Shown piece after piece: positions 1 through 58,349 of a DNA stretch of 64,000 nucleotides. Position numbers and translations under genes: made by a program. The notes under the pieces are model-generated. The model was given only the letters and a program-made list of their open reading frames with translations, did not search any database and was not told the DNA's origin. Where the stretch lies: the NCBI GenBank assembly GCA_050298695.1, contig JBNKUQ010000002.1, forward strand, positions 3,136 through 67,135. Reading direction: 5' to 3'. Within the stretch, counting starts at the first letter, position 1. Each line of letters starts with the position of its first letter. This stretch comes from Cellvibrionaceae bacterium (GTDB lineage Bacteria; Pseudomonadota; Gammaproteobacteria; Pseudomonadales; Cellvibrionaceae).

Positions 1-2784
1 CTAAATAATATTATTTCCCAAGTTAACTTGCTAGATCCTTCACAATCGACATTAAGTGCTAATGCCTTCAATGTCGATACACAAGCTTGGAACGGATTAC
101 CCTCCTTTACCGGTGCCAGCGGTTTTTTAGATATGAGTTTGGATGAGGGTATCGTCTTATTAGATGCGAACCAATTTTCTTTTTTCCCCGATGTGATCTA
201 CAACGAAGCAGTTGTCACCGATCGAGCTCGTGGCGCAGTGAGTTGGCGTATCGACACAACGAAGAAACAGGTTGAGGTTTACGGTTATGATTTAATGGCA
301 TCCAGTGAATATGGTGAAGCCCGTGGCCATTTTGCTTTGGATTTGGGGTGGGGTTCGAATAAAGAGTACCAAAATTTGGTATTACAGGTGGGCTTACAAA
401 ATTCCAATGCATTATTCCATAAACAGCTTGTTCCCAAACTATTACCGCGTGAGTTATTGCGATGGATGTCGGCATCCATTAAATCAGGTGATGTGAAACA
501 AGCAGGTTTATTTTATCGTGGAGGGTTTCAACAAAACTCCGAGCGCACGATACAATTTTTTGCTGATTTAGAAAATGGTCGTCTTGATTTCAGCGATGAT
601 TGGCCAGCGTTAAATAATTTAAAGGGGCGATTTATAGTTGAGGATAAACAGATACGAGGCAGCGTAGATACCGCTTCGGTCTATAATCGAGATTTTTTTC
701 AAGGCGAGTTTAAATGGAATAAAGACGATCGTAATGTATTGAATATTAATGCAAAAGGCAGTACCAATATTCAGTCGGGTTCTCGCTATTTGCGTGAGTC
801 ATGGTTGAATACAAAAGCGGGGCCGGTCGCTAAGCAATTAGATGGCAAAGGTAGAGTCGGTGTCGATGTAAAGTTAACCATTCCCTTAAATCATTCCCCT
901 GTACCCGCGACACAAAATGTCAGTGTTTATTTTAAAAATAATACCGTGGCATTAAAAGAAACAGGATTAACCTTTGAGGATGTATCAGGAACGCTGCATT
1001 ACTCGACAGAGCGTGGATTTGCGAGTAATCATTTAAGCGGGAAATTATTTGGCCAGTCAGTTATTGCTGAGGTCGGGCTTGATGCTTCACAAAAAGATAA
1101 AATTGTATTGATTAAAGGTAGTGGTAATGCTCCTGCTAAGTCGATTGCGAATTGGTTGCAGCATCCAATCCTTAACTACCTGTCAGGTAATGCCGATTAT
1201 CACCTGGCCATTCAGATCCCACTAGAAGAAAGTTTATTTCAACCTAATATAACGGTGACTTCAAATTTAGTCGGCGTCAGTGTGGCAATGCCCGCCCCTT
1301 TTGACAAACGCTCCGAAGCAGTATTACCACTGACCTTTACTATGCCACTAAATGAAAACAAATTTGAGTATAAGTTAGTCATAGGTAATATTTTTTCTGG
1401 TCATTTTTTATTTGAACAAGATGACAGCTACAGAGCGATTGTAGCCGTCAGTGATAAGCAATATCCTCAACAGATTAGCTTGCCTGAATCCGGTGTGAAG
1501 TTAGTAAGTCAGTTTAATGATGTGGATGGGAAAGCGTGGTTAGACTTTTTAAAGCAGTATCCTCGTGATGAAAATAAATTGAATCATCAAACATTCAATG
1601 CTTTATTTTCGATTGATCATCTTCGTTACAATGATTCTGAATTTGATAACTTGATGGTTTCAGGTCATCGGGAACAAAATGGTTGGAGCTTGTTGGTTGA
1701 AGGGGATGATATCCTCGGTGGCGTTTATGTTGATGACAATAAAGAGCGCCCCTTAATTGTTGATATAGATTATCTTAATTGGCCACCAGGGTATGTGGAA
1801 CAAGTTGGTAAAACTTTAACGCCTGAGCCTACAGATGTTACTTCTAGCATTGATATTCTTGCCGATGTCAATCCTGCGGAACTGCCTGCGGCAAATATTA
1901 AAATCAATCGCTTAATCTATAAAAATAAACCCTTAGGTAGTTGGATGATGCAACTGCAACCGGATAGTGAGGGATTGTGGGTTCGCAACTTAGTCGCGAC
2001 GGTTAATGGTTTTACGCTAGCGGGAGAAGGTGATAATCAAGGCGCGAGTTTACGTTGGTTTGCGGGAGGTGAAGGTGCTCCTATGTCAACGGTTTTCAAT
2101 GGAAAAATTACTGGTGGTAACCCTAAAACCTTATTCGAACAATGGGATCTTCCTTTTGGTTTGGAAAGCGAGCAAACCTTGTTAACGGCGGATTTATCTT
2201 GGTTGGGCTCTCCAGCAGGATTTGATATTGCGAAATTGCAGGGCAACATCCGAAGTGAGCATAAAAAGGGAATCTTTACTCAAGAAAAAACAAACGAAGC
2301 AACGGGTATATTGAGGCTATTTGGTTTATTTAATTTTGATTCTTGGGCGCGCAGAATACGTTTAGATTTTTCTGATGTCTACAAGAAGGGTATCGTTTTT
2401 GATGATTTACATGGTCAGTTAACCTTTGATCGAGGTCTTATCGTGATATCGGAACCGGTTACCATGCAAGGGCCATCAAGTAAAATGTCTTTGTCTGGAT
2501 CAATAGATTATCCTGAAAAAATGGTAGATGCTCATTTGGTGGCAACTATTCCTATTGGTGGCAACTTGGCGGTTGTTGCGGGTATTGCTGGTGGTTTACC
2601 TGCAGCGGCTGGAGTGTACTTGGTTAGCAAACTCTTCGAAAAGCAAGTAGAAAAAGTTTCCAGTGTCAATTACTCTATTGATGGTCATTGGAATAACCCA
2701 GTGATTAAAGTCGAAAATTTAAAAGAGCAAGCGACTGATACCCCCTCTGAAACAGCTAAAACTAACTCATTTGAAGATGGATAA
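1..2784 (+). CDS. yhdP: YhdP-family (AsmA-like) envelope-spanning protein, C-terminal ~925 aa; the 5' end lies off the window
   Basis: Frame 1 is open from nt 1, with no stop before the ORF-track start at 28, so the gene is truncated by the window edge. Its size and C-terminal hydrophobic Gly/Ala-rich segment (AVVAGIAGGLPAAAGVYLVSKLF), followed by VNYSIDGHWNNPVI, match my memory of YhdP C-termini. Confidence 0.7.
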   Translation, partial: LNNIISQVNLLDPSQSTLSANAFNVDTQAWNGLPSFTGASGFLDMSLDEGIVLLDANQFSFFPDVIYNEAVVTDRARGAVSWRIDTTKKQVEVYGYDLMASSEYGEARGHFALDLGWGSNKEYQNLVLQVGLQNSNALFHKQLVPKLLPRELLRWMSASIKSGDVKQAGLFYRGGFQQNSERTIQFFADLENGRLDFSDDWPALNNLKGRFIVEDKQIRGSVDTASVYNRDFFQGEFKWNKDDRNVLNINAKGSTNIQSGSRYLRESWLNTKAGPVAKQLDGKGRVGVDVKLTIPLNHSPVPATQNVSVYFKNNTVALKETGLTFEDVSGTLHYSTERGFASNHLSGKLFGQSVIAEVGLDASQKDKIVLIKGSGNAPAKSIANWLQHPILNYLSGNADYHLAIQIPLEESLFQPNITVTSNLVGVSVAMPAPFDKRSEAVLPLTFTMPLNENKFEYKLVIGNIFSGHFLFEQDDSYRAIVAVSDKQYPQQISLPESGVKLVSQFNDVDGKAWLDFLKQYPRDENKLNHQTFNALFSIDHLRYNDSEFDNLMVSGHREQNGWSLLVEGDDILGGVYVDDNKERPLIVDIDYLNWPPGYVEQVGKTLTPEPTDVTSSIDILADVNPAELPAANIKINRLIYKNKPLGSWMMQLQPDSEGLWVRNLVATVNGFTLAGEGDNQGASLRWFAGGEGAPMSTVFNGKITGGNPKTLFEQWDLPFGLESEQTLLTADLSWLGSPAGFDIAKLQGNIRSEHKKGIFTQEKTNEATGILRLFGLFNFDSWARRIRLDFSDVYKKGIVFDDLHGQLTFDRGLIVISEPVTMQGPSSKMSLSGSIDYPEKMVDAHLVATIPIGGNLAVVAGIAGGLPAAAGVYLVSKLFEKQVEKVSSVNYSIDGHWNNPVIKVENLKEQATDTPSETAKTNSFEDG

Positions 2785-3064
2785 ACCTAAATCGCCTCTC
2801 CTTAATTTATAGCCCACGTATTCCTTTTCTTTTTCAATTCGGTTAACTAATACTAAAAAATAATATATTTTTTAGTGGTGCTAACCTCTAGTAATAACTT
2901 TATACCTCAATCGTAGCTCTTTTATATTATCGATAGTCAAAAGTTATAACATGTTGCCATTTGTCGAATTTTAGCCACCTTTGATCTTATCGTTTAAAAA
3001 GCGGTCATTTTTTGAGTTAGTATTTACCTGTTGTTTCCACTTTTTCATGTAAGGTTGTACAAAA

Positions 3065-3646
3065 GTGCTTAGGTATTCAGGTTTTACTCTAATTGAACTG
3101 ATCGTGGTGATATCTATCATTGCTATTGTGGCATCGGTGGGCGTCCCTCTTTATAACTCGTTTATTAAAGATAATAGACTGTCATCCGCTACCGTCACCT
3201 TATTAGGTGAATTTCAGTATGCACGTTCTGAAGCAGTGAAGCGAAACTCTCAGGTCACTATATGTGCCTCGAGTAACGGTAGTTCATGCAACAGTAGTGA
3301 TTGGGAGGATGGACGGTTGGTGTTTGTCGATGATGGTGCTGGCACACCCGCTAATGCGGCGAATGGTGCTGTTGATAGTGAAACCATCCTCAAGGCCTTT
3401 GGTGCAGCCTCCTCAGGAATGACCTTTACTCCAACACTGTTTACCACGAGTGGATACATTATTTTTTCTGGTGACGGGACAGTGAGCGATGTTGGTACTC
3501 TAGTGATATGTGATGATCGATCAGTACCACAAGCTATTAACATTAATATGACAGGGCAAGCCCGTAAGGCTTATGACTCCGATGAGTCAGTTGATGGTGT
3601 TGTTAATAATTTTTCAGGAGTAAATGTTACATGCCCTTCTGCCTAA
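3065..3646 (+). CDS. Type IV pilus minor pilin, GspH/FimT/FimU family (first gene of cluster 1)
   Basis: GTG start. The prepilin signal MLRYSG|FTLIELIVVISIIAIVASVG has Gly-1, Phe+1 and Glu+5. It is ~190 aa and is the leading gene of a pilV-W-X-Y1-E operon. Confidence 0.8.
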   Translation: MLRYSGFTLIELIVVISIIAIVASVGVPLYNSFIKDNRLSSATVTLLGEFQYARSEAVKRNSQVTICASSNGSSCNSSDWEDGRLVFVDDGAGTPANAANGAVDSETILKAFGAASSGMTFTPTLFTTSGYIIFSGDGTVSDVGTLVICDDRSVPQAININMTGQARKAYDSDESVDGVVNNFSGVNVTCPSA

Positions 3647-3663
3647 TACAATCCAAAAAACAC

Positions 3664-4173
3664 ATGCAAGGTTTTAGTCTTATAGAGGTTATTGTGTCTG
3701 TTTTTATTCTTGCCGTTGGCGTACTAGGTATTGCCAGCATGCAAACAGCAAGTATCAAAATGAATCAAGGCGCCTTTCATCAATCTCAGGCTAATATTCT
3801 AATTAACGATATCTTTGATCGAATGCGCGCAAACAGAGACGCTTTTTTGGCGGGTGATTATGACGATGCGAATACCGCAAATGATGTGCCTGCCGCTCAA
3901 GCATGTATTACTAGTGCGGCTGGATGTACCTCTTCTCAACTTGCCTTGCAAGATATTCGAGAAATCACAGCTTATCTTAGAGATATTAGTAATCAAGGTA
4001 ATAGCTTTGCTGCACTGATACCCGATGGTAATGCTAGGGTAGTGCGTGATACCGACACCAATACGGCGACAGTTACGGTCACTTGGAAACAAGATGTTTG
4101 GTCTCAAAATAATGAGGGCGTTGCTGTGAAAAGTATTTCGAATGAAACCTTGTCGATGTCAGTTAGGATCTAA
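3664..4173 (+). CDS. pilV: Type IV pilus minor pilin PilV (cluster 1)
   Basis: MQGFSLIEVIVSVFILAVGVLGIASMQ is a typical PilV N-terminus. I prefer ATG 3664 over the ORF-track start at 3631, which overlaps the upstream gene. Confidence 0.8.
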   Translation: MQGFSLIEVIVSVFILAVGVLGIASMQTASIKMNQGAFHQSQANILINDIFDRMRANRDAFLAGDYDDANTANDVPAAQACITSAAGCTSSQLALQDIREITAYLRDISNQGNSFAALIPDGNARVVRDTDTNTATVTVTWKQDVWSQNNEGVAVKSISNETLSMSVRI

Positions 4174-4176
4174 AAC

Positions 4177-5271
4177 GTGAATATTCAGCTTGTTCAACAT
4201 TATAAAAATAGAAAAGGGTTCACTCTGGTTGAATTAATGGTGGCAATGGTACTAGGCATTATTGTGCTTTTTGCTGTCACGCAGGTGCTTAACAATAATC
4301 GCTTGTTGACCAATACAGAAGTTTCTCTGTCGCGCATTCAAGAAGCGGGTCGTTTAGCGGTTAATTTACTGAATAAAGAGTTTCGTAAAATTGGTTATCA
4401 TGGCTGTAGTAATCCTGGCGATATGAATGTAACAGTTATGGCTACGTCGGGAGTCGACTCTGATTTTGGTGCGACATCTTTACGTGGATATGAAGTGGGT
4501 GCTGGCGGTACATTTTCTCCTGCTTTAGATGCTTCATCCAGCTTGTCGGTGATTCAGGGAACGGGTGTTAGACAAGCGAGAGTCGGAAGTGATGTTATTC
4601 AAATAAAATACGCAGACCGTACGGGAGCAAAATTAACGGGGAATACGGACCCTGTTAATGCCAATATTCAAGTAGATAGTAATCCAACAGGTTTGTCGCA
4701 AAATGATATCGCCATCGTTTCTGATTGTAACTCAGCACATATTTTTCAAATTACCAATGTAAGCACGACAGGAGGAAGCAGTATTGTAACGATGGCCCAT
4801 GCTTCGAGTAACAATAGCCCTCATAAAATGTTACCAGGTTATACAACTGACGCTGATCTCTTGTCATATTACGATGCGACTTATTTTGTTGCTGATACTG
4901 GTCGCAATGTTCGTGGCAGTATCGATGTTTATTCGCTTTACAGAAAAATGAGCAACAGTGCGACCCCGGAAGAATTAGTTGAAGGCGTTGAGTTTTTCCA
5001 AGTGTTGTATGGTGAAGATGTTGGTTCTGGCCGAATAAGGTTTGTACCTGCAGGGACATCGGGGCTTAATATGCAGTCAGTAGTGGCTATTAAGTTTGCT
5101 CTATTGATTCAAGATTTTGAAGTGGGTCAAAAAGATAACGATACTCGCTCTTACACTTTATTGGATACGACAATTCCTGCCTCTGGTACTTTATCTCATT
5201 CTGGGGGCAAATATTTAAGGAAAACTTTCACCAGTACAGTACAGCTACGAAACATACGTACATCTAATTAA
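4177..5271 (+). CDS. pilW: Type IV pilus minor pilin / assembly protein PilW (cluster 1)
   Basis: The prepilin-type N-terminus is KGFTLVELMVAMVLGIIVLFAVTQV. It is 364 aa and sits between pilV and pilX. Confidence 0.8.
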   Translation: MNIQLVQHYKNRKGFTLVELMVAMVLGIIVLFAVTQVLNNNRLLTNTEVSLSRIQEAGRLAVNLLNKEFRKIGYHGCSNPGDMNVTVMATSGVDSDFGATSLRGYEVGAGGTFSPALDASSSLSVIQGTGVRQARVGSDVIQIKYADRTGAKLTGNTDPVNANIQVDSNPTGLSQNDIAIVSDCNSAHIFQITNVSTTGGSSIVTMAHASSNNSPHKMLPGYTTDADLLSYYDATYFVADTGRNVRGSIDVYSLYRKMSNSATPEELVEGVEFFQVLYGEDVGSGRIRFVPAGTSGLNMQSVVAIKFALLIQDFEVGQKDNDTRSYTLLDTTIPASGTLSHSGGKYLRKTFTSTVQLRNIRTSN

Positions 5272-5301
5272 TTATTACTTTTTATTTTTGAGACCCTATT
5301 T

Positions 5302-5817
5302 ATGAAACAAGTCAACAAACCTCTTAATTTTTTCATTACTTATTCAAGTAAACAGTCGGGCATGACTCTTTTTGTGAGCATGATTATGCTGTTTGTGATG
5401 ACAATCTTAGGTTTGTCGACGATAGGGTCGACAACTCTTGGCGTGCAGATGGCAGCTAACAATCAATTTGAAAATATTGTATTTCAAGAAAGCGAAGATG
5501 CGATAGAAACTAGTGCTGATGATATTAATTATTTAGGCAGTGCTTATACAGCTAGTGTTATTTCCTCTACTCCCAGTTGGCCTACTAATACTGTAGAAAC
5601 TGCTTCCAGTAGTAATAATTATTTAAGTAGCAGTTCTCAGGCTAAATTTATTGGTTTTGCTAACCCCAAAGGTGAGTCGGCAGGAAGTATTCGTATGGGA
5701 ATGTCGGGATACCAACTTTATAACTATGAGATTAGAGGCACGGCTTCTTTGGCAAATAATAATGCTGAAAATACCAATGTCCAAGGTGCCTATATTATTG
5801 GTGCTCGTTTTAACTAA
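5302..5817 (+). CDS. pilX: Type IV pilus minor pilin PilX (cluster 1)
   Basis: The PilX_N-type hydrophobic helix is QSGMTLFVSMIMLFVMTILGLSTIGSTTLGVQMAANNQFE. It lies immediately upstream of pilY1. Confidence 0.7.
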   Translation: MKQVNKPLNFFITYSSKQSGMTLFVSMIMLFVMTILGLSTIGSTTLGVQMAANNQFENIVFQESEDAIETSADDINYLGSAYTASVISSTPSWPTNTVETASSSNNYLSSSSQAKFIGFANPKGESAGSIRMGMSGYQLYNYEIRGTASLANNNAENTNVQGAYIIGARFN

Positions 5818-5858
5818 TTTTTGTATCAAATCCTTTTAGTATTTTGTGGGAGATAAGA

Positions 5859-8800
5859 ATGAAAACAACTGCACTTAAAACATTTTTGGCTAGCTTGGGC
5901 CTTTATTGTTTTTGTCTCTCGCTAGCTAATGCTGATGATACAGAAATTTACTTTGGAAACAACGCTGTATCGGTTGATACGGTTCACCCTAATATTTTAT
6001 TAATTCTAGATACCTCAAGTTCAATGGAAAATATTGTATCTGGTACAGGGATGAGTCGGCTAGATAATATGAAAGGTGCGCTGCGTACTTTAATTTCTAG
6101 TACCAATAACGTCAATATGGGGTTGATGCGTTTTAGCCGAGCAGGAGGCCCTGTTCTTTATCCGGTTTCTTACATTGATCAGCCGCTCGGTGAAAGTGCT
6201 GCAGGACAAGTTTCTGCTCGTGTTAGTCAAGCGGACGATGATGCTCAACAATCTTTGCTTGGTGTCATGGAGCTAGATAGTCCATTTGTTACCATGACGG
6301 AAACGACAACGGGTGGAAACCAGTCCGTTGAATTGGAAATACTCAATGTTACTGACGATGTAGAAGAGAAAGTTCCTAGTGGAAGTTTAGATATAGGCAG
6401 CTCCGATTTGGAAATTATGCACGAGGGAAGTAGTCAGCAGTTAATCGGTTTACGTTTTACGAACACATCGGCTATTACCCCTAGTTCTACGATTATCAGT
6501 GCTGAAATTGAATTTTCAGATGATGGTGATGCTGCTAATAATGACTCTGATTTAGAAGTCACTATTCAAGCTGAAAGAGAAGGTGATACGGGTACCTTTG
6601 GTACGGGTGCGGGTCAAAATAATGTTTCATCACGTAATTTAACCACGGCTGCATCTAATTGGTTTGTGGGTAATTTTGATGCAAATGGTAAATTAATAAC
6701 GAATGATTTAGCTGCTGTGCTAAATGAGGTTATTAGTGATGGTGTTTGGAGCGAAGGCGACCCATTTACCTTTGTATTGCAATATGCCTCTGGTAATGGC
6801 TCCGCCCGTCGTGTTGCCATGAGTCGGGACCGCTCTGCAACGAATCAGCCAAAGCTTAGGATTACCTATAGCACGGGGGCGTTGGCTGTTACGCAAAATC
6901 AAACGGTTGGTTTGCGCTTTCAAAATGTTGGCGTACCCAAGGGGGCGACGATTACCAGCGCTTCTCTAGAATTTGTTGTTGCACAAGCATCATCAAATAC
7001 TACTAGCTTAACTATTAGTGCAGAAGATACAGGGAATGCTGCCGCTTTCACTAACACAGCTAATAATTTAAGTATTGGTAACCGCCCTCGTACCTCCGCT
7101 TCTGAGTCTTGGGTTCCTGGTGAATGGGAGACTATTGGTGAGGTGGTCGAAAGTGTGGATATCAGTGATGTTATTCAAGAAGTCACAAGTCATGATGATT
7201 GGTGTGGCAATAATGCGATGGCGTTATTTATTAGTGGTACGGGTCAAAGAATTGCCGAATCTTTTGAGAGTAATCCTTCTTCTGCCCCTGTTTTAAAAAT
7301 TAATTATGATCCTGATTCTGTGCCTAATAATAATAGTTGCTTTAATCGCGAGTATTCTTATCGTGTTGAAAATAGTTCGGATGATGCAGAGCAAGAGTCG
7401 GGTCAGGATGTTTATTTGGTTAGTTCCGACTTAGAGTTATCTGATGATGGGAGTAAACTACAAGAGATAGGTATTCGTTTTAGTGGTGTACAAATTCCTA
7501 AAAACGCTGAAATTCAATCGGCCTATTTAGAATTTACGGCAGACGGTTCGAGTACAGATTCAACGTCCTTAATTATCTATGGCGATGATGTCGATGACTC
7601 TCCAACCTTTGGTGCATCATCTAATACGGTGATAGGTCGTACCAAAACGGCTGCTTCGGTATCATGGAGTAATGTAGCTAGCTGGGATGCTAGCGCCACT
7701 TATCAGTCCCCTGATATTACTGCTATTGTGCAAAGCATTGTTAATAGAAATGGTTGGAGCGCGGGAAATGGAATGTCCTTTATCATCACAGGCTCAGGCA
7801 CACGTAGAGCGTTTTCGTACAACGGCAGCGCAGGTCTGGCTCCAAGGTTGGTGGTACAAGCAAAAAGTGATGATGTCACTTCGTCAACCAGAACGGTAAG
7901 AGATGAATTACTCGAAATTGTTGACGGTATTCAATATAAATCAGGCACACCAATTGTTGGAACTTATTACGAAGCCGCTCTCTATTTTCGAGGAGAAAGT
8001 GTTGACTTCGGTAGACAAAGAGGCAATGACGGATCAAGTCGTAGAGAGCATACACGAGTTTCACATCCAGATTCCTATATGAGTGGTGTTGTTAACCGCG
8101 ATGCAGGTTGTACAGATGACAACCTAAGTTCCACGGACTGTAGGACTGAAAATATTAGCGGCAGTCCCGTTTATATTTCTCCTATAACTGAGTCTTGTCA
8201 AAAAAATCATATCGTTATATTGACTGATGGTCAGGCGAGTTATAACGCTGCAGAAGATAAGGTAAAAGCCATGATTGGCTCGAGTACTTGTGCTGATACA
8301 GGCAATCAAGCTTGTGGTCCCGAATTAGCAACCTGGTTAAATACGGTAGATCAGGCTCCAGGAGGAGCTATTACTGGTGACCAAACGATTACTACTCACA
8401 CGATTGGATTTAACTTTACCGGTGATTGGATTAAGTCAATCTCGGAAAATGGTGGTGGTGATTTTTATGAAGCTTCAACGGCAGATCAATTAGCGAATGC
8501 CTTTGAATCGATAGTGACAGAAGCGTTGAAGACTAATTCGACGTTTGTATCTCCAGCGGTAGCGATTAATCAGTTTAACCGACTGAATCATTTAGATAAC
8601 ATTTATTTCGCTGTGTTTAAGCCAACAGAAGAAGCGTTATGGCAAGGCAATGTTAAAAAATATCGTTTAAGTGGTACTGAAAATGATATTACCGATGTCA
8701 ATGGTAATCTTGCTATTGATGAGTTAACAGGCTTTTTTAAAGACTCATCTCAAAGCTACTGGTCTTCTAGTGTCGACGGGCCTGATGTGCCCCTGGGTGG

Positions 8801-10526
8801 TGTTGTTGAAAATTTACCAGGGCACCCTCGAAATACATATACGTTTACCGGTTCGAGTCTAGACCTTACTGATAATTCCAACGCTTTACATACCATTGCT
8901 GGTGTTTATAACAGTGGCGTTACTAAAACGATGTTAGGTGATGCAACAATGACGGATCAGGCTAGAGAAGATTTATTAGACTGGATTACAGGGCGTGATG
9001 TTCTAGATGAAGATAATGACTCTAGTACGAGTGATCGTCAATCCATGGCCGATCCTCTGCATTCAAAACCCATTGTTTTTACTTATGCTGGAACCAGTGC
9101 AAGCCCAAGTTTAGCCTTGCTCTTTGGGACTAATGATGGACATTTTCGTGCGGTTAATGCTACCAATGGTCAGCAGTTGTGGTCATTTATTCCTCCAGAA
9201 CTGCTACCAGTCTCGAAAACCTTGTATGAGAATATTAGCGCTCAGCATCCTTATGGTGTCGATGGCTCTCCAGTATTGTGGGTGAATGACCCCGATTTTA
9301 ATGGTACCGAAGTTGACTTAACGGGTGCGAATGACTTTGCTTATGTGTATTTTGGAATGCGCAGAGGGGGGCGAAATTTCTATGCACTTGATGTGACCGA
9401 TATCAATGAACCAAAAATTAAATGGAGAATAGAAGGGGGAGTCGGTGATTTTGTTGAGTTAGGTCAGACGTGGTCACGTCCGATTAAAACTAAAATAGGC
9501 ATTCGTTCTGGTAACACTACAGAAGAAATTGATGTTTTGATATTTGCGGGCGGCTATGACCCAGATCAAGATAATGTCAATATCCGCACTGCAGATACCC
9601 AAGGTAGGGCTATTTTTATTGTTAATGCGATTACTGGAAATCTGATTTGGAGTGGAGGTCCTGGCGGTAGTTTCACCGAAAACTTTGCTGACATGCAATA
9701 TAGCATTCCAGCCTCTCCTGCAGTTGCGGATCTCAATAACGATGGTTTAGCAGATCAAATTTATGTGGGTGATATGGGGGGACAGATTTGGCGCTTTGAC
9801 ATTACCAATGGAGAACAATTGAGTGGATTAATCAGTGGCGGTGTGATAGCCGATGTATCAGTGAGTAATGATGCCGCTAACACAAGACGATTCTACCACT
9901 CTCCCGATTTGGCGTTAATTAAAAACGGTGCTGGGAACCTCTCATTAACCGTATTAATTGGGTCCGGTTATCATGCCCACCCTCTTGATACGCAAGTAAC
10001 GGATCGTTTTTATAAAATTGATGTGGCTAACCCTTTTGAAGCTCCAGGGTCTTACGTAAAACTAACGGAGACAGACCTGTACGATGCTTCGGATAATGAA
10101 CTAGGGAGTAGTGATACTAGTACAGCAGCGGCAGCTCAGGCGACCTTTGCGACAAAGAATGGATGGTACGTTACCATGCCAAATCTTGGAGAAAAGGTGC
10201 TGTCATCTCCATTAACGATTGATGGTCAAGTTGTTTTTGTGACTTACGAGCCTAAAGCGAACACATCTGGTTGTACGGTTCAGCCTGGTACCTCTCGTGA
10301 GTATGTACTTAGAGTTAGTAACGCTACGCCAACCATCGATTTTAATAATGATGGTGTATTAAATGAAGATGATCGCTCGGAGACTTTGAATACAGGTAGT
10401 ATTGTTGATGAACCCGTTATGGTCTTTACAGGTGATGGTGGTGGTACAACCTTCTTAGGTACAGAAAAAGGCAGTTTAAGTATTGGCACAGACCGTGTGA
10501 TCAGAACATTTTGGTATCAAGAATAG
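5859..10526 (+). CDS. pilY1: PilY1-like pilus tip adhesin (cluster 1). It is unusually long (~1555 aa), with a vWA domain interrupted by three repeat modules.
   Basis: The signal peptide is MKTTALKTFLASLGLYCFCLSLANA, followed by DDTEIYF. The vWA MIDAS motif is ILLILDTSSSM, with GTPIVGTYYEAALYF and VILTDG far downstream. The C-terminal PilY1 propeller carries a Ca-site-like ADLNNDGLADQIYVGDMGGQIWRFD. ATG 5859 is preferred to the ORF-track start at 5844. Confidence 0.85.
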   Translation: MKTTALKTFLASLGLYCFCLSLANADDTEIYFGNNAVSVDTVHPNILLILDTSSSMENIVSGTGMSRLDNMKGALRTLISSTNNVNMGLMRFSRAGGPVLYPVSYIDQPLGESAAGQVSARVSQADDDAQQSLLGVMELDSPFVTMTETTTGGNQSVELEILNVTDDVEEKVPSGSLDIGSSDLEIMHEGSSQQLIGLRFTNTSAITPSSTIISAEIEFSDDGDAANNDSDLEVTIQAEREGDTGTFGTGAGQNNVSSRNLTTAASNWFVGNFDANGKLITNDLAAVLNEVISDGVWSEGDPFTFVLQYASGNGSARRVAMSRDRSATNQPKLRITYSTGALAVTQNQTVGLRFQNVGVPKGATITSASLEFVVAQASSNTTSLTISAEDTGNAAAFTNTANNLSIGNRPRTSASESWVPGEWETIGEVVESVDISDVIQEVTSHDDWCGNNAMALFISGTGQRIAESFESNPSSAPVLKINYDPDSVPNNNSCFNREYSYRVENSSDDAEQESGQDVYLVSSDLELSDDGSKLQEIGIRFSGVQIPKNAEIQSAYLEFTADGSSTDSTSLIIYGDDVDDSPTFGASSNTVIGRTKTAASVSWSNVASWDASATYQSPDITAIVQSIVNRNGWSAGNGMSFIITGSGTRRAFSYNGSAGLAPRLVVQAKSDDVTSSTRTVRDELLEIVDGIQYKSGTPIVGTYYEAALYFRGESVDFGRQRGNDGSSRREHTRVSHPDSYMSGVVNRDAGCTDDNLSSTDCRTENISGSPVYISPITESCQKNHIVILTDGQASYNAAEDKVKAMIGSSTCADTGNQACGPELATWLNTVDQAPGGAITGDQTITTHTIGFNFTGDWIKSISENGGGDFYEASTADQLANAFESIVTEALKTNSTFVSPAVAINQFNRLNHLDNIYFAVFKPTEEALWQGNVKKYRLSGTENDITDVNGNLAIDELTGFFKDSSQSYWSSSVDGPDVPLGGVVENLPGHPRNTYTFTGSSLDLTDNSNALHTIAGVYNSGVTKTMLGDATMTDQAREDLLDWITGRDVLDEDNDSSTSDRQSMADPLHSKPIVFTYAGTSASPSLALLFGTNDGHFRAVNATNGQQLWSFIPPELLPVSKTLYENISAQHPYGVDGSPVLWVNDPDFNGTEVDLTGANDFAYVYFGMRRGGRNFYALDVTDINEPKIKWRIEGGVGDFVELGQTWSRPIKTKIGIRSGNTTEEIDVLIFAGGYDPDQDNVNIRTADTQGRAIFIVNAITGNLIWSGGPGGSFTENFADMQYSIPASPAVADLNNDGLADQIYVGDMGGQIWRFDITNGEQLSGLISGGVIADVSVSNDAANTRRFYHSPDLALIKNGAGNLSLTVLIGSGYHAHPLDTQVTDRFYKIDVANPFEAPGSYVKLTETDLYDASDNELGSSDTSTAAAAQATFATKNGWYVTMPNLGEKVLSSPLTIDGQVVFVTYEPKANTSGCTVQPGTSREYVLRVSNATPTIDFNNDGVLNEDDRSETLNTGSIVDEPVMVFTGDGGGTTFLGTEKGSLSIGTDRVIRTFWYQE
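6216..7862 (+). repeat. Three tandem protein-level repeat modules inside pilY1 of cluster 1 (about aa 125-343, 344-489 and 505-673 of the ORF-track protein)
   Basis: Recurrent blocks are SSDLEIMHEGSSQQLIGLRFTNTSAITPSSTIISAEIEF, QTVGLRFQNVGVPKGATITSASLEF and SSDLELSDDGSKLQEIGIRFSGVQIPKNAEIQSAYLEF. Each is followed by a tail: GDPFTFVLQYASGNGSARRVAMS, NNAMALFISGTGQRIAESF or GNGMSFIITGSGTRRAFSY. Confidence 0.7.
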
Positions 10527-10549
10527 TGTTTGCAAATAAGGGTTTAAGT

Positions 10550-10987
10550 ATGAAACAACGTAATAATGGCTTTTCATTGATAGAGTTGATGATTGTTGTA
10601 GGAATCATCGCTATATTAGCGGCAGTAGTGATTCCTAGTTATCGGGACAGTGTTCGTGCAGGTAATCGAAGTGATGCTCAATCGGCATTGGTTGGTTTGT
10701 CTCAAGAAATGGAAAGACACTTTGCAAGCAATAATACATATACCACAGCTATTTCTGGCAGCGCTCCAACTGCCCCCTCAATTTTTCCTTCACAGGTTCC
10801 TTTAAATGGTGGTGATGCAACTTATAATTTAACGGTTCAGTCTGTCAGTGCTAGTGGCTATACTCTAAGAGCGACTCCCGTAGGTTCTCAGGCCGGTGAT
10901 GGTTATTTAGAATTACTGTCAACGGGAGTGCGACGCTGGAATGAAAATGATGGTGGTGTAAAGCAATGTTGGGATAGCAGCTGCTAA
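10550..10987 (+). CDS. pilE: Type IV pilus minor pilin PilE (cluster 1)
   Basis: MKQRNNG|FSLIELMIVVGIIAILAAVVIPSYRDSVRAGNRSDAQSAL. It has a C-terminal Cys pair (CWDSSC) and is the last gene of the operon. ATG 10550 is preferred to 10511. Confidence 0.8.
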   Translation: MKQRNNGFSLIELMIVVGIIAILAAVVIPSYRDSVRAGNRSDAQSALVGLSQEMERHFASNNTYTTAISGSAPTAPSIFPSQVPLNGGDATYNLTVQSVSASGYTLRATPVGSQAGDGYLELLSTGVRRWNENDGGVKQCWDSSC

Positions 10988-10998
10988 TTTATTGATTA

Positions 10999-11535
10999 CT
11001 AACATCTGGGCCCATGTATTAATATTTCCTGAATTAAACTCACTAATCGCGATCGATTTTTTTGAGAGCTATTTGCTTTCTCTTTTTCTTTATTGATGTT
11101 GCGGATCAACTGGCTAAGTTGTTGACGATTGTTGTTTGGGTAGTGCTCAATAAACTCGGCTAATGTGTTGGGATCTTGAATTAAACGTTCACACCATTGG
11201 CTAGCCGTTTCTGTTGATTGTTGGTGTTGACGGTCTTGCACGCTGAGGCTGTCGTAAGCAAGTTTTACATCATCATAATTTTCTTTACGCAATATTTTAG
11301 CAATGCGCTGCATTTGTCGACGTCGGCTATTGTCATTTTTTAATTTGCGCGCAAGCTCAAGTTCAGACCGCAACAACTCGCTGAGTGGAAGTTTTGCGAG
11401 TTTGGATGTACTCAATGTTAAGAGCATTTCAGCAAACGCGAGAATATCCTGTAGAGCTTTCTTTACTGCGCTTTTACTGAGAGCAATACCCTCATCTAGT
11501 TCCGCATCGATATCAGGGTGAATATGTTTATCCAT
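10999..11535 (-). CDS. yjgA: YjgA/DarP (DUF615) ribosome-associated protein
   Basis: It is 178 aa. LSKSAVKKALQDILAFAEMLLTLSTSKLAKLPL...LELARKLKNDNSRRRQMQRIAKILRKE parallels E. coli YjgA (SKSEIKRDAEELKRLG...RRRQLQLIGKMLR). Its start overlaps the mgtE stop by 8 nt. Confidence 0.75.
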   Translation of the reverse strand: MDKHIHPDIDAELDEGIALSKSAVKKALQDILAFAEMLLTLSTSKLAKLPLSELLRSELELARKLKNDNSRRRQMQRIAKILRKENYDDVKLAYDSLSVQDRQHQQSTETASQWCERLIQDPNTLAEFIEHYPNNNRQQLSQLIRNINKEKEKANSSQKNRSRLVSLIQEILIHGPRC

Positions 11536-43102: not shown

Positions 43103-43112
43103 TTCTTAGGTT

Positions 43113-44255: not shown

Positions 44256-44388
44256 AGGGTGGTAATACCAAGGTATGTCTCTGGCAATGTTTTATTTCTG
44301 ATTTTGTGTTCTATAATAAATATTAATTTGTTATGGGCAATTCATGTCTGTATAAAAAAATAATAGGTAATAGGGCTGAGCCATATAA

Positions 44389-51648: not shown

Positions 51649-51795
51649 TCTTTCTGTTTTGAGTTTGCGGATCAACCATAGTTTTTTTTTGTATCAATAA
51701 TTAAATATCCATATCTTTTTCGTCTAACCATTAAAAACTACCGTTTGTCGGCGAATACTGTCCATTGAGCTAGTGCAGAGTATAGTTTCGTCCAT

Positions 51796-52320
51796 ATGAA
51801 AGCAAAAGGACTGATGGGTATGAAAAGAAACGGTTTTACTCTCATTGAACTACTCGTAACAATTACTTTACTAGGTATATTGTTGGGTGTAGGTATACCC
51901 AGTTTGCAAACCTTAATGGCGAATATGACCATTCGCTCCAATACCGAAAAATTAATTAACTCTCTAGCCTATGCCCGTGGCGAGGCCGTTGCACGTGTTA
52001 AAAATGTATCCGTACGTTCCGCTAGCGTTACCGAAAGTGGTGGCGCAGTGACATCCGTTGATTGGAGCGACGGTTGGATGGTATTTGTCGATGAAGCTGG
52101 CAATTGCTCTTTTGATGCTGGAGATGAAGTCTTGCGGGTCATCGATATCAGTGCCGATGATGTCACAATCACTCCGCCTAGTAATACAACGGCATGTATC
52201 AGGTTCAATCGCTTGGGTGAGAATGACAATGCAACAGCGGCTGGTTTCGGTTTGTCTAAAACGGGCGCAAGTTCCGCAGCAATTACGGTTTCCAATACCG
52301 GTTACACATCTAAGGATTAA
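51796..52320 (+). CDS. fimU: Type IV pilus minor pilin, GspH/FimT/FimU family (first gene of cluster 2)
   Basis: MKRNG|FTLIELLVTITLLGILLGVGIPSLQTLM. It is the leading gene of the pilVWXY1E operon next to ispH, so the symbol is given by positional analogy with P. aeruginosa. Confidence 0.75.
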   Translation: MKAKGLMGMKRNGFTLIELLVTITLLGILLGVGIPSLQTLMANMTIRSNTEKLINSLAYARGEAVARVKNVSVRSASVTESGGAVTSVDWSDGWMVFVDEAGNCSFDAGDEVLRVIDISADDVTITPPSNTTACIRFNRLGENDNATAAGFGLSKTGASSAAITVSNTGYTSKD

Positions 52321-52332
52321 TGGGTAAATACT

Positions 52333-52851
52333 ATGATTTTCTCTAAATCGAATCAGTTGGGTTCTAGTCTTGTCGAAACCATGGTGTCCTTACTGCTTAT
52401 GGGGGTGGGTTTACTGGGTGTTTTAACGCTACAAGCTAAGGGTTTAAATAGTAATCAGCGGGCGGTATTTGTGACAGAAGCACAAATCATTGCCCAAGAT
52501 ATGGCTGACCGAATTATGGCTTTTGGGAGTACAGATTCTAATGCTATCAGTAATGCGGTTGCTAGTAGTGGTTTCTATAATGGCATCAGTATTGCCAAAG
52601 GTAATGAACTAGTGGAATCAAGCTGCTCGGTTGCTTCTCCCTGTAATTCTAATGCCGATATCAGAGCTTACGATGCCAATGAGTGGTTGCGCCTCATGAG
52701 AAACTCTTCTCTACCTCGAGCAAGAGCTACGGTTAGTTGGGCAAGTCAGGTATACAGTATCAGGGTGATGTGGGATCAAGAGCGTATAGGAGAAGGTGAG
52801 GTAGAGTGTGGTACCGACAATTGCTTCACTATGGAGGTTAGACTTCCATGA
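52333..52851 (+). CDS. pilV: Type IV pilus minor pilin PilV (cluster 2)
   Basis: The PilV-type N-terminus is GSSLVETMVSLLLMGVGLLGVLTLQAKGLNSNQ. Confidence 0.8.
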   Translation: MIFSKSNQLGSSLVETMVSLLLMGVGLLGVLTLQAKGLNSNQRAVFVTEAQIIAQDMADRIMAFGSTDSNAISNAVASSGFYNGISIAKGNELVESSCSVASPCNSNADIRAYDANEWLRLMRNSSLPRARATVSWASQVYSIRVMWDQERIGEGEVECGTDNCFTMEVRLP

Positions 52852-53990
52852 TCGCATTACCTGTTAATTGTACCCGTCAGTTAGGGGTAAGTTTGGTCGA
52901 GTTATTGGTCTCTATGGTGATTGGCCTGTTCATTATGGCCGGCGTATTACAGTTGTTCAGCACCACTACTCAAAACTCTGTAGCGGTAACAGGTCTTTCC
53001 CGTATTCAAGAAAATACTCGTTATGCTTTTTCACGGATAGCGGAAGATATTGCACAGTCGGGTAATTTAGGTTGTATGTCCGCTTCTATTGCTACCAATT
53101 ATTCATCCAGAGAACCGATTACTAATATGCTTTCTGGCGTCACAGATGCCAATGCTTACGATTTTTTATCTACTATATGGGGTAAGGATGGGGCGAGCTC
53201 TGGAAGTGTCAATACCGAAGATGAAGATGAAGATGGTGTTGCTCCAGGTACAGACCGATTTCGTATCCGCTATGTTAATCATGTGGTTAGATTCGATGTA
53301 ATTGATATGAGTGATACTAGCGTAACGGTTAGCTATAATGCATCCGATAGTGCTGAGACAGCCACACTGCCACAGAGTGGGCAAATTGTAGCGGTAACTA
53401 ATTGTTCGCAGGGTGCGGTTTTCACGGCAACAGGTATTGATATAGGTACGACGACAAACGACGAGGGAGATATTACTTATACAAACGAGGCAGTTATTAC
53501 TCATACAACTGAGACGGAAAATATTGCCGTTCCAAATTCAACGTCTGAAAAAAATATCAATACGTTTATTCCCAACACTAGTGCATCGGCGGCAAATGTT
53601 ATTTCGCCTTTCTATTTGTACGCGGGTTCAACGGGTTCTTACGAGTACACAGTAGGCACTGCGGTAGGTGCGGCAGCCGCCTGCAACAGTGCTACTGCAC
53701 CACAAAATTGTGCCTTGTTTCGTAGTGACTCTGGAACACCACCAGAAGAAATCGTCAAAGGTGTTCACGATATTCAAGTCGAATATGGTTGGGTTGACTC
53801 GGCTGGTAACTTACGCTTTGCGGCAGCCCCAGATTCTGCTCAGTGGCCGTTTATCGACAGAATGAAAGTTACGATGGCTTTTAATTCAATGGATAATGTG
53901 ATCACTAATGGCAATGCCATTGATCAATCGACAGATGGTCTTCTTAAAAAGTCTTACACGCGAACCTTTAATTTATACAACCAACTTTAA
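52848..53990 (+). CDS. pilW: Type IV pilus minor pilin / assembly protein PilW (cluster 2)
   Basis: LGVSLVELLVSMVIGLFIMAGVLQLFSTTTQN. It is 380 aa and shares an ATGA overlap with pilV. Confidence 0.8.
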   Translation: MIALPVNCTRQLGVSLVELLVSMVIGLFIMAGVLQLFSTTTQNSVAVTGLSRIQENTRYAFSRIAEDIAQSGNLGCMSASIATNYSSREPITNMLSGVTDANAYDFLSTIWGKDGASSGSVNTEDEDEDGVAPGTDRFRIRYVNHVVRFDVIDMSDTSVTVSYNASDSAETATLPQSGQIVAVTNCSQGAVFTATGIDIGTTTNDEGDITYTNEAVITHTTETENIAVPNSTSEKNINTFIPNTSASAANVISPFYLYAGSTGSYEYTVGTAVGAAAACNSATAPQNCALFRSDSGTPPEEIVKGVHDIQVEYGWVDSAGNLRFAAAPDSAQWPFIDRMKVTMAFNSMDNVITNGNAIDQSTDGLLKKSYTRTFNLYNQL

Positions 53991-54007
53991 TTATATTAGG
54001 CCAGCTT

Positions 54008-54646
54008 ATGAATATACCAAGAGGGTCAGTATCAACTCCTATCAATCAGGTACAACAACGAGGAGTTGTTCTAGTCATATCGTTAGTGATGCTTTTGGTG
54101 ATGACCATTGTTGGTGTCACCATGATAACGGGTGCAACTTTACAAGAACGCATGGCGGGTAATAATCGTCAACTTGCTATTGCAAGACTAAATGCCGAGT
54201 CTGCATTACGCGAAGCCGAAGAAGAGCTTGACGATTTAAATATAGCTACAAGTGCTGATCCTGTGGCGACGATACTATCGCAATTCTCTACTGAAGATGA
54301 TGCTTACGCCGTTGCAGTTTATGCCAATGGCTTCACCTATGACCCGCTCAGTTTTACAGTATCCGATGCTAGTGAATGGGCGTCAGCTTCTGCAGAAGGC
54401 TCCGTTTTAACAGAAGCAGCTACCGCTTTGGAGGGGACTGGAGCAAATGCCCCTCGCTATGTGATCGAATACATTGGGCGGATGGCTATTAATGACCCCA
54501 GTCCTGATATCGATATCAGTGTAGAGAAAAAAGATCTTGTTAGTACCATTCCCCATGCTTTTCGTATTACAGCGATTGGTTATGGAAGAGATAATAAAAT
54601 CAATGCAATTTTGCAAAGTATTTATTCTACCGCTGACAATCTTTAA
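54008..54646 (+). CDS. pilX: Type IV pilus minor pilin PilX (cluster 2)
   Basis: The PilX_N pattern is QQRGVVLVISLVMLLVMTIVGVTMITGATLQERMAGNNRQLAIARLNAESALREAE. Confidence 0.8.
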   Translation: MNIPRGSVSTPINQVQQRGVVLVISLVMLLVMTIVGVTMITGATLQERMAGNNRQLAIARLNAESALREAEEELDDLNIATSADPVATILSQFSTEDDAYAVAVYANGFTYDPLSFTVSDASEWASASAEGSVLTEAATALEGTGANAPRYVIEYIGRMAINDPSPDIDISVEKKDLVSTIPHAFRITAIGYGRDNKINAILQSIYSTADNL

Positions 54647-54670
54647 GAATAGTGTAGAACGAGGACAATT

Positions 54671-57600: not shown

Positions 57601-58309
57601 GGTGACTTTACACCCCTCTCGTCGTTCATCGAGTACTAAGCCTAATATTTTAGTCTTTTTTGGTACCGGTCAATATCTTGCTGAAGGAGATAATGCAACA
57701 ACCGAACGCCAATCTTTCTACGCAGTGTGGGATGCGATCAATGTCGATGACGATAATAACCTCGTTAATAATAATTTAACTAAACAAAACCTGGTCGAAA
57801 GGACTTTTTCTAGCAGTGATACAGATGACGGCACAGTATTTACAATAGCTGGTGACCCTGCCACTTATATCACTTCTAATGCTGACGGAGATGGTAATTA
57901 TGGCTGGTATGTCGATCTGGAATTAGCTGAAAATAATGTATTCTTGAGAGGCAGGGTGGTGATTAACCCTTTGTTATCGGGTGAAGTTGTCTTTTTTATT
58001 GTTTCCGTTCCTCGTCAAGGGGCTTCTTGTGACTCTGGTAGTAGTAATAGCTATCTGGTGTCACTTGACTTGCTGTCAGGTTTGGTCCCTGATTTTACGG
58101 TTTTTCCGGATGGTGATGGAAGTTCGAATTCTTCCGATACTTTCTCTAGCCCAGTAACGGAGTTAACGAATTCTGTCGTTGGGATGGGAATAAGTGGTAT
58201 TGAAAACACACTTATTTTAACTAATGAGAATAGTTCTATCACAACTAAAAACGTGACTGATGGTAGACCAATTCCCTCTGGCAGGAAGTCCTGGTCAATT
58301 ATAAAGTAA
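54671..58309 (+). CDS. pilY1: PilY1 pilus tip adhesin / Ca-binding protein (cluster 2)
   Basis: It has a signal peptide. vWA-like motifs are NILFMLDDSGSM, GTPLKRTLLQAGRYF and VLFSDG. The C-terminal propeller carries VDLNGDFKVDRVYAGDLHGNMWAFD. It is 1212 aa. Confidence 0.9.
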   Translation: MKAKQLIRYLLSPVVPLISIHVFAAPGVLQDAPLIVSIEPVQPNILFMLDDSGSMASLLLYSNSAVEVDGVDSNALQNNLDFTPDNSGERKRLCPAYNVLAYDPTQIYSPWPGVDENGVAFQPVTDLTSVRRDPYIASDTVNISNNRYVLDDLNDGIYVVGDCDSDNVRSIADETDPVARTNYGNWYVYYRSRQLTAKASLSNIIYGSRARVGATGLFKKNGDALNRTKGGVLIKDIDDSQEDETLAAVAAQNKAALLQYIHGTIVSDTGAGTPLKRTLLQAGRYFNSEESPDPYFFGVGKEHAESENTINSNTPILNAANSGACQQNFAVLFSDGFMNRDSSPGLGNVDGDNGPTFADTYSNTLADIAMYYFENDLVPDGSEANQLNDYVRARDPRTGSTINRQHMTTYTIAFGVNGNLSGNPGEVGFDEWPEPVEQSPSSIDDMRHAAWNGRGRFLNSSNPRKLNEDLDSIFDDIYGRTEGTAAAATVSSGLLETTTQLFTAKYDSSDWSGDLTSQLFDSNGLLEEENEWSAKGRLNKRVEDDNGDTSYTNSRTILTYSVDLNDFNNLSNTGGVVFDYANLHTSQQAILTSATFDSWTETDENFAIALVDYLKGSKIYETGVITDYILDNEDADDYPDVFRSRNGNYLGAIVNSSPQYVGPPNDKYPDQIQSSSALYNSFKTSRANRTPLVYVGSNDGMLHAFNAAVNVSNEGDVSVSNDGGEEVFTYIPGLLTEKLPNLASPNYQYQAYVDATPTVRDVYIGTDSTSGASTSVDAWRTYLVGGFRSGAKGIYVLDVTDPVGTFASSITTDAQKAASIVKFEYTHPDLGYTFSRPQIAKLNDGKWVAIFGNGYNADGDGRAKLFIVDLATGQAVDILDTGVGNNAGGSCLDEDASDGDAASDCNGLSSPTLVDLNGDFKVDRVYAGDLHGNMWAFDIENTSSDAWTSNKLFTANRSGDGECTSTTCRQPITVKPEVTLHPSRRSSSTKPNILVFFGTGQYLAEGDNATTERQSFYAVWDAINVDDDNNLVNNNLTKQNLVERTFSSSDTDDGTVFTIAGDPATYITSNADGDGNYGWYVDLELAENNVFLRGRVVINPLLSGEVVFFIVSVPRQGASCDSGSSNSYLVSLDLLSGLVPDFTVFPDGDGSSNSSDTFSSPVTELTNSVVGMGISGIENTLILTNENSSITTKNVTDGRPIPSGRKSWSIIK

Positions 58310-58349
58310 GTACATAGAATCTTTAATCGCAGATAAATTGGATGCATAA

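Follow-up and report, generated by a model that had tools for sequence, protein, structure and literature searches.

An additional minor-pilin/PilY1 operon, probably acquired, between yhdP and yjgA in a Cellvibrionaceae genome

The locus between yhdP and yjgA

Why should a complete set of minor-pilin and PilY1 genes of the type IVa pilus (T4aP) stand between yhdP and yjgA in a genome that carries another such set elsewhere? The window analysed here, a stretch of 64,000 nucleotides of contig JBNKUQ010000002.1 (C2) from a Cellvibrionaceae bacterium, is part of a metagenome-assembled genome (MAG) of 3.16 Mb (G000 below; 195 contigs, 83% complete, 1.4% contamination). The family assignment is supported by RpoN, whose best matches are to Gilvimarinus (68%) and Cellvibrio (66%). 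A preliminary description of the window had placed in it two sets, cluster 1 (3065–10987) and cluster 2 (51796–58808), both in the order FimU (GspH-like)-PilV-PilW-PilX-PilY1-PilE; open reading frames (ORFs) are found at exactly these coordinates, and their Pfam families agree. The answer developed here is that cluster 1 is probably an intact accessory T4aP priming/tip operon, which would have been gained horizontally, inserted between yhdP and yjgA, and serve the resident machine. Cluster 1 and its flanks comprise the following features.

1..2784, plus strand: 3′ part of yhdP (AsmA2/YhdP family; NCBIfam TIGR02099, E 1.6e-124), left flank of the insertion
2785..3064, plus strand: AT-rich leader of cluster 1, 280 bp, preceding the first gene
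3065..3646, plus strand: fimU-like (GspH-type) minor pilin 1 (Pfam GspH 4e-16, N_methyl; GFTLIE prepilin site with glutamate at position +5, E+5)
3631..4173, plus strand: pilV-like minor pilin 1 (Pfam Tt1218-like and N_methyl; GFSLIE site)
4177..5271, plus strand: pilW-like minor pilin 1 (Pfam PilW 3.9e-18, N_methyl)
5302..5817, plus strand: pilX-like minor pilin 1 (Pfam PilX_N 2.3e-7; GMTLFV site with V at +5)
5844..10526, plus strand: pilY1-1, 1560 aa (Pfam VWA_2 and T4P_PilY1; likely start ATG 5859; signal peptide)
10511..10987, plus strand: pilE-like minor pilin 1 (Pfam ComP_DUS 3e-20, N_methyl; GFSLIELM; likely start ATG 10550)
10999..11535, minus strand: yjgA, ribosome biogenesis factor (NCBIfam NF003593, E 9e-34), right flank of the insertion

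The domains of cluster 1 (GspH, Tt1218-like, PilW, PilX_N, T4P_PilY1, and ComP_DUS) follow the canonical order and all score above their Pfam cut-offs. FimU, PilV, PilW, and PilE each have a class III prepilin signal of the form GF[TS]L[IV]E, with G at −1 and E at +5, and the PilX-type proteins are without E+5, a feature likewise found in GspK/PilX-type tip pilins. With its four core minor pilins (FimU, PilV, PilW, PilX), PilE, and the tip protein PilY1, cluster 1 would thus be able to supply a priming/tip complex. The flanks are as described before, with yhdP on one side and yjgA, mgtE, rapZ, ptsN, and rpoN on the other.

In the window, yhdP and yjgA are 8.2 kb apart, and the distance is filled by the six pilus genes, the stop codon of pilE-1 lying 11 bp from that of yjgA. 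The comparison extended to 40 related genomes, 13 of which belong to the same genus. In all six congeners examined at this site (G002, G005, G006, G007, G012, and G013), the gene order is rpoN-ptsN-rapZ-mgtE-yjgA, followed by convergent yhdP, with yhdP and yjgA adjacent and no pilin gene between them. The gap is short in five of these genomes and ~360 bp long in G006, the closest congener. The empty site of G006 (locus L035, contig C63) includes a GC-rich palindromic element similar to repetitive extragenic palindromic (REP) sequences (…CCCTTGGGGCAATGCCCCAAGGG…). A PilY1 of the PilY1-1 type is present in none of the 13 congeners, whose weak matches are their own cluster-2-type genes. Since yhdP and yjgA abut in the congeners and none of the 13 has PilY1-1, cluster 1 is an insertion between these two convergent genes. 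The suggestion that the locus is an unusual one for such an operon is therefore borne out by the comparison of the interval across relatives. The further expectation, that tldD and pmbA would be found there, fails for this family: the congeners' genes abut, and in G021, a member of another genus (g9), the gap is occupied by msrB and a nitrilase-type amidase gene. A chimeric assembly is unlikely, because the syntenic neighbour is regained on both sides of cluster 1.

Three minor-pilin/PilY1 sets

The count of two sets has to be raised, as a whole-genome Pfam search for PilY1 revealed a third complete operon with the same gene order. Clusters 2 and 3 are composed as follows.

51796..58808, plus strand: cluster 2 operon, fimU-pilV-pilW-pilX-pilY1-pilE, with the same Pfam series as cluster 1
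51796-52320, plus strand: fimU of cluster 2
52333-52851, plus strand: pilV of cluster 2
52848-53990, plus strand: pilW of cluster 2
54008-54646, plus strand: pilX of cluster 2
54671-58309, plus strand: pilY1 of cluster 2 (pilY1-2)
58350-58808, plus strand: pilE of cluster 2
Contig C13, 35992-42971 (locus L039, 5993-12972): cluster 3 operon, fimU-pilV-pilW-pilX-pilY1-pilE, after tuf and a second elongation factor G (EF-G) gene

Contig C13 carries rpoB, the only rpoC of the genome, fusA, and tuf, and it resembles the rest of G000 in tetranucleotide signature; native composition and the unique rpoC thus assign this contig to the genome. The hydrolase and methylaspartate mutase genes that flank cluster 3 were not found in five congeners, so that no empty site can be defined for this operon. 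The first pilin of cluster 3 ends with a C-terminal GRPR (GRxR) motif, which we take to be a mark of DNA-binding FimT proteins. Elsewhere on C13 (6155-26805), ~20 kb of unannotated ORFs separate rpoC from fusA-tuf, in a region that is normally compact.

Between clusters 1 and 2, sequence identity is 33% for FimU, 26% for PilV, 22% for PilW, and 29% for PilE, as well as 36% for PilX (over the N-terminal 89 aa only) and 24% for PilY1 (over the C-terminal 490 aa). The paralogues are therefore as diverged as they had appeared by eye, far below the ~70% taken as the limit for a recent duplication, and at 22–36% identity across the six pairs both a recent duplication and an assembly repeat are ruled out.

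Origin of the clusters

By the distribution of its PilY1, cluster 2 is evidently the vertically inherited set, since PilY1-2 is present in 12 of the 13 congeners, is syntenic where examined, and is nested in the clade of the genus. Its identity to the congeneric proteins is 45–57%, and 41–42% to those of the nearest other genera, while FimU-2 is 43–46% identical within the genus. In six congeners ispH is the gene immediately preceding the orthologous fimU, and in G007, G012, and G013 the PilY1-2 orthologue shares a contig with yjgA, at a distance of 37–47 kb.

Cluster 1 has its closest relative in G021, outside the genus but in the same family, where a complete orthologous cluster of six genes is present. 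The identity between the two is 57% for FimU, 55% for PilV, 64% for PilW, 59% for PilX, 66–68% for PilY1, and 64% for PilE, so that the cluster-1 proteins are more alike between genera than the cluster-2 proteins are within the genus. For comparison, the housekeeping proteins of G000 and G021 are identical at 64% (RpoN), 62% (MgtE), 46% (RapZ), 41% (PtsN), 35% (YjgA), and 27% (YhdP). In G021 the cluster is located on a different contig from yhdP and yjgA, with an ABC transporter on one side and a response regulator on the other, and a second PilY1-like gene is present besides that of the cluster-1 type.

The maximum-likelihood phylogeny of 40 PilY1 proteins, based on their C-terminal 620 residues and calculated in a quick search mode in which the support of long branches needs to be read with care, consists of two deep clades, A and B. 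In clade A, PilY1-2 is the sister of the G006 protein, nine congeners group with it, and the members of the family and the order lie outside, a pattern expected for vertical descent. Clade B contains both PilY1-1 and PilY1-3 and no sequence from the same genus. PilY1-1 is the sister of the G021 protein (support 99), the path between them being 0.47, compared with 0.57 between PilY1-2 and its closest congener. PilY1-3 is the sister of genes from G020 and G022 (support 98), followed by genes of Thalassotalea/Alteromonadaceae. Since PilY1-1 and PilY1-3 branch apart, they point to separate acquisitions and not to a duplication within the genome, and cluster 3 is by this topology evidently a separate, independent gain. 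With G000 nested in its genus on the PilY1-2 tree, one gain of cluster 1 accounts for the distribution far more parsimoniously than a series of clean losses would. These data are best read as a horizontal gain, an origin not raised in the preliminary description, by which cluster 1 would have entered the lineage as a six-gene unit.

Within the genus, eleven genomes have a single PilY1 gene, G006 has two, and the search gave none in G011. In other genera more than one PilY1 gene is often present, with two or three in several genomes and eight in G032, of the same order. The eight PilY1-like genes of G032 are distributed over contigs C26, C28, C65, C79, and C87, with three in tandem on C28. The arrangement is accordingly less unusual than first supposed, being common outside the genus and also published (PMC8833165, PMC7541494, PMC13190605).

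PilY1 tip proteins

The von Willebrand factor A (vWA) domain of PilY1-1 includes a metal-ion-dependent adhesion site (MIDAS) with the motif DTSSS, and its C-terminal β-propeller, which matches PilY1 in the structure 3hx6 of the Protein Data Bank (PDB) with E 2e-12, includes the Ca-loop motif DLNNDGLAD (aa 1296–1304), predicted to bind calcium. The Ca-loop motif is common to all three PilY1 proteins; the DxSxS MIDAS is present only in PilY1-1 and PilY1-2, and PilY1-3, with 1279 aa, is devoid of it. The greater length of PilY1-1 is due to an insert of three tandem modules, which interrupts the vWA domain after the MIDAS strand.

6318..7871, plus strand: three tandem β-sandwich modules resembling carbohydrate-binding modules (CBMs), aa 159-344, 348-490, and 498-676 of PilY1-1

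The modules match their common profile with E 1e-55 to 1e-67 each. The model of a single module, predicted from 15 module sequences, has pLDDT 90.2 and pTM 0.87, whereas an 861-aa model is of low confidence (pLDDT 63). In Foldseek searches the module model was matched to the chondroitin-sulfate-binding CBM 8wab (E 8e-7, TM 0.62/0.65) and to the alginate-binding CBM 7vbo (TM 0.52/0.54). The best score against Pfam CBM96 (PF24517), reached by 1 of the 15 modules, is 20.8 bits, against a cut-off of 26 bits, and Pfam and PDB profile searches with the N-terminal region of five PilY1-1 orthologues returned vWA only.

The module is confined to some PilY1 proteins of clade B, namely those of G000, G021, G032, G035, and G039, of a Methylococcales MAG, and of another gammaproteobacterial MAG; in G000 it is absent from PilY1-2, PilY1-3, and every other ORF. 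The module-bearing PilY1 is conserved across orders, with an identity of 33–68%. On the basis of the modelled fold, a polysaccharide-binding pilus tip is a reasonable proposal for the function of PilY1-1, which might attach to a polysaccharide or to another glycan surface.

Upstream box and regulation

A box of the form CC[AG]TTT[AG]TCG (CCRTTTRTCG) precedes each of the three operons on the coding strand, at a distance from the first gene of 108 bp in cluster 1, 55 bp in cluster 2, and 87 bp in cluster 3. In the window these boxes are as follows.

2957-2966, plus strand: AlgR-type box of cluster 1, CCATTTGTCG, 108 bp before fimU-1
51741..51750, plus strand: AlgR-type box of cluster 2, CCGTTTGTCG, 55 bp before fimU-2

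The motif occurs 21 times in the genome, counting both strands, and a shared 10-mer with at most one mismatch was found in 0 of 400 random triples of 150-bp segments. In Pseudomonas aeruginosa the fimU operon is activated by AlgR, which binds in its upstream region, and a core site of the CCGTTCGTC type is documented there (PMC4064291). The first nine bases of the cluster-2 box, its core, are identical to algD-RB3 (CCGTTTGTC) of that species. The cluster-2 operons of six congeners have, at the same upstream position, a conserved CTAATCTCTAAAAACCAACC-RYTYRTC block with a degenerate core; a strict search upstream of the congeneric operons had matched the box in 2 of 7, and it was by inspection that the conserved block became apparent. 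Scans for promoters and terminators gave nothing above the shuffled expectation. The genome encodes a single REC-LytTR regulator, preceded by a 339-aa ORF with no NCBIfam match, which by a sequence motif is a candidate sensor kinase of the LytS/AlgZ type. With a box common to the three operons and one candidate FimS/AlgR-like pair, all three sets are predicted to be under FimS/AlgR-type control, and the acquired ones appear to be wired into the host's own minor-pilin regulator.

We can go one step further, tentatively and with more doubt than confidence, and picture PilY1-1 and its orthologues from several gammaproteobacterial orders as an undescribed subfamily of lectin-like tip proteins, whose three inserted modules would allow the retractile pilus to grab acidic polysaccharide of algal or host origin, the six-gene cassette spreading horizontally and plugging into the resident T4aP and AlgR circuit.

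It could instead be argued that cluster 1 is surplus to the other sets or mostly silent: intact and capable of priming pili, it would have no adhesive role of its own, and any one of the three sets would suffice. The presence of the same upstream box in three operons favours co-regulation over differential regulation, and the sets of Myxococcus xanthus are reportedly interchangeable in part for pilus formation (PMC7541494). The three PilY1 proteins of G000, on the other hand, have unrelated N-terminal regions, with the triple module in PilY1-1 only and PilY1-3 lacking the MIDAS, and the retention of the module-bearing form across orders suggests selection on the modules, which makes a spare unlikely.

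Pilus machinery

The genes of the T4aP machine and of a type II secretion system lie outside the window, on other contigs.

C19: pilin genes beside pilB-pilC-pilD-coaE
C40: ponA and pilMNOPQ-aroKB
C41: pilT/pilU
C110: gspD of the type II secretion system (T2SS)
C87: gspE-F-G-H-I-J of the T2SS

In the assembled 83% of the genome there are one PilC-type and one GspF-type platform, as well as one PilQ-type and one GspD-type secretin. With one PilC and one PilQ, the three minor-pilin/PilY1 sets face a single T4aP machine within the assembled part. No major pilin had been reported in the window, and no prepilin was found there beyond those of the clusters and a fimT-like gene. The pilA locus itself (C19, 8783-12058) has three pilin genes (133, ~140, and 141 aa). 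Between the pilin genes of C19 lies a gene for a 557-aa membrane protein similar to Wzy_C/O-antigen ligases, in an arrangement that resembles TfpO-type pilin glycosylation.

Since the assembly encodes one T4aP machine, we infer that the three sets are alternatives for it: they would act as alternative priming complexes for the products of pilA|pilBCD, pilMNOPQ, and pilT/U, and each set would place a different PilY1 at the tip of the pilus. Such alternative priming/tip complexes had been proposed from the outset, and the proposal fits everything seen here.

That cluster 1 serves some other filament, such as a T2SS pseudopilus, a pilus of the MSHA type, or a DNA-uptake filament, is improbable. 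In its favour, the first gene of the cluster matches the GspH family and the last one ComP_DUS, 17% of the genome is unassembled, and there is an additional ATPase of the PilB/GspE family (T2SSE), an orphan with an MshEN domain (C32, 13915-15717) adjoining ORFs of 1007 and 307 aa, that could drive such a filament. The MshEN domain of this ATPase is presumably of the c-di-GMP-binding type. However, no prepilin, platform, or secretin gene is found near it, and cluster 1 has the hallmarks of a T4aP set in PilW, PilX_N, and the Ca-loop propeller of its PilY1. The T2SS has its own pseudopilins GspG-J, encoded with gspE/F on C87, whereas cluster 1 departs from a T2SS pseudopilin set in containing PilY1 and PilW and in lying apart from the gsp genes, which are on other contigs. 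None of the mshA-D pilins, mshE/G/L, or mshO/P/Q flanks cluster 1, and one platform of each type and two secretins are all that was found. The assignment of clusters 1 and 2 to T4aP, and neither to a T2SS nor to MSHA, is thus upheld by the separate gsp loci, the one PilC, and the one PilQ.

Loss, artefact, or gain

The third alternative regards cluster 1 as an ancestral feature of the locus, or of the family, that was lost repeatedly and kept in G000. Related clusters do have a patchy distribution among several genera of this family and order, the composition of cluster 1 is fully native, and no mobility genes were found. This explanation is quite improbable, however, as G000 is nested in the genus, with G006 as its sister, and the empty site of six congeners would require several independent clean deletions. 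In addition, the G021 orthologue is at another locus, and PilY1-1 is 66–68% identical between genera, compared with 41–42% for the vertical PilY1-2. Finally, an assembly or binning artefact, by which cluster 1, or C13 with cluster 3, would come from another organism of the metagenome, is conceivable in a MAG of this contig number, completeness, and contamination and yet highly improbable, given that both junctions of cluster 1 fall precisely in one intergenic gap between neighbours syntenic in congeners, that all three clusters resemble the rest of the genome in codon usage, GC content, and tetranucleotide signature, and that C13 has the only rpoC as well as rpoB, fusA, and tuf.

Horizontal gain of an accessory T4aP operon, as preferred here, has several observations to set against it. 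The GC content, GC3, codon usage, and tetranucleotide distance of the clusters are native, with z-scores within ~1.2 sd. No tRNA and no direct or inverted terminal repeats were found at the borders of the insertion, and no integrase or transposase in or beside cluster 1 or beside the G021 orthologue, so that in mobility genes, tRNA, repeats, and deviant composition cluster 1 differs from a genomic island or mobile element. A look-up of exact proteins gave no independent assembly in which the junctions could be checked. It is by homology alone that cluster 1 would be assigned to the T4aP machine. In a MAG that is 83% complete a second machine could be unassembled, and there is the orphan MshEN ATPase on C32. 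As regards regulation, the LytTR regulator does not reach any of the equivalog cut-offs of NCBIfam, and a search upstream of the orthologous operon in G021 did not find the AlgR-type box. The CBM assignment of the modules is one of fold similarity (TM ~0.6, 21% identity) and not of membership in a sequence family. Composition, put forward earlier as a check on cluster 1, is uninformative: the profiles of GC and codon usage are in the normal range of the genome, and they neither support nor date a transfer, because the candidate donor lineages have a similar GC content.

Surroundings of cluster 2

The genes next to cluster 2, on the side of pilE, are the following.

58805..59353, minus strand: fimT-like GspH-type pilin, divergent, beside cluster 2 (Pfam GspH 2.7e-14)
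59495..60910, minus strand: pilR-like sigma54 response regulator (NCBIfam NtrC/AtoC-class match, below the equivalog cut-off)
60907..62502, minus strand: pilS-like histidine kinase (NCBIfam HK-class match, below the equivalog cut-off)

The names pilR and pilS are based on synteny with P. aeruginosa. In the fimT-like pilin (58805-59353) the prepilin site reads GFTLLN, with N replacing the usual E at +5, and the C terminus carries a GRAR motif; by these features the protein may be a FimT of the DNA-receptor type with an atypical N terminus. The Pseudomonas-like neighbourhood attributed to cluster 2 is largely there, with murJ, ribF, ileS, ispH, the sigma54 regulator, and the kinase all present, except that murJ and ribF are not adjacent. 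Two genes on the minus strand (386 and 380 aa), neither of which matches a Pfam family, occupy the gap between these two (41942-45660), and after them comes a gene for a REC-GGDEF response regulator. The GC content of the two minus-strand genes is 0.36, compared with 0.42, and the genes of this gap have the appearance of a further small insertion into a gene order that is otherwise similar to that of Pseudomonas.

Significance

The arrangement is well supported and is ordinary in kind, multiple sets and horizontal gain having been published already, and the picture of T4aP biology is unchanged by cluster 1. What the locus offers is a clean natural example of tip/priming sets as exchangeable cassettes, with the site empty in congeners, filled here, and an orthologue elsewhere. 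The inherited set was retained, and extra sets with different PilY1 heads were added, apparently under the resident regulator. The most interesting lead is PilY1-1 with its CBM-like modules: the family consists of marine polysaccharide degraders, and the modules suggest a testable link between attachment by the pilus and recognition of the substrate.

Comparison with known systems

In M. xanthus, experiments are reported to have shown that three minor-pilin/PilY1 sets each place a different PilY1 at the tip (PMC7541494), and the horizontal gain of one class of PilY1 has been inferred in Myxococcota (PMC13190605). Like M. xanthus with its clusters 1–3 (PMC7541494, PMC8833165, PMC9109919), G000 combines several complete FimU-PilV-PilW-PilX-PilY1 sets with a single T4aP machine, and in both the N-terminal domains of PilY1 diverge while the C-terminal propellers are conserved. 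In contrast, the host is here a gammaproteobacterium, PilE is part of each set as well, none of the 13 congeners searched has the extra sets, and no TfcP-like cytochrome is found beside the clusters of G000. Also unlike the differential control of the HsfBA type in M. xanthus, the common box of G000 suggests co-control of the AlgR type. The sets of M. xanthus were shown by experiment, whereas those of G000 are known from their genes.

To our knowledge, P. aeruginosa PAO1 has one minor-pilin/PilY1 set only, compared with three in G000. We also take the cluster 2 operon of G000 to be inverted relative to its flanks when compared with the PAO1 map. In its gene series and its neighbours (ispH, the lspA/ileS side, fimT, and pilR/pilS), cluster 2 resembles the fimU-pilVWXY1Y2E operon of P. 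aeruginosa (PMC4064291). Further common features are a sequence like the AlgR core upstream and a PilY1 in which a MIDAS-bearing vWA domain is combined with a propeller of the Ca-binding type (3hx6). Unlike that operon, G000 has no pilY2, and PilY1-1 is ~400 aa longer than the P. aeruginosa PilY1, owing to the insert of the modules.

Each module of PilY1-1 is predicted to adopt a β-jelly-roll fold like that of 8wab (the chondroitinase CBM) and 7vbo. It differs from these proteins and from CBM96 in that the identity is only 14–21% and in its location, which is inside the vWA domain of a pilus protein and not on a glycoside hydrolase or lyase.

Multiple PilY1/PilC paralogues per genome are also present in Neisseria and Kingella. 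In these genera and in Xylella it is mostly the PilY1/PilC gene alone that is duplicated, whereas G000 multiplies whole six-gene sets, two of them foreign to its genus. What G000 does have in common with Xylella fastidiosa (PMC9956873) is the presence of more than one tip protein of the PilY1 family per genome, for which functional specialisation is proposed or shown.

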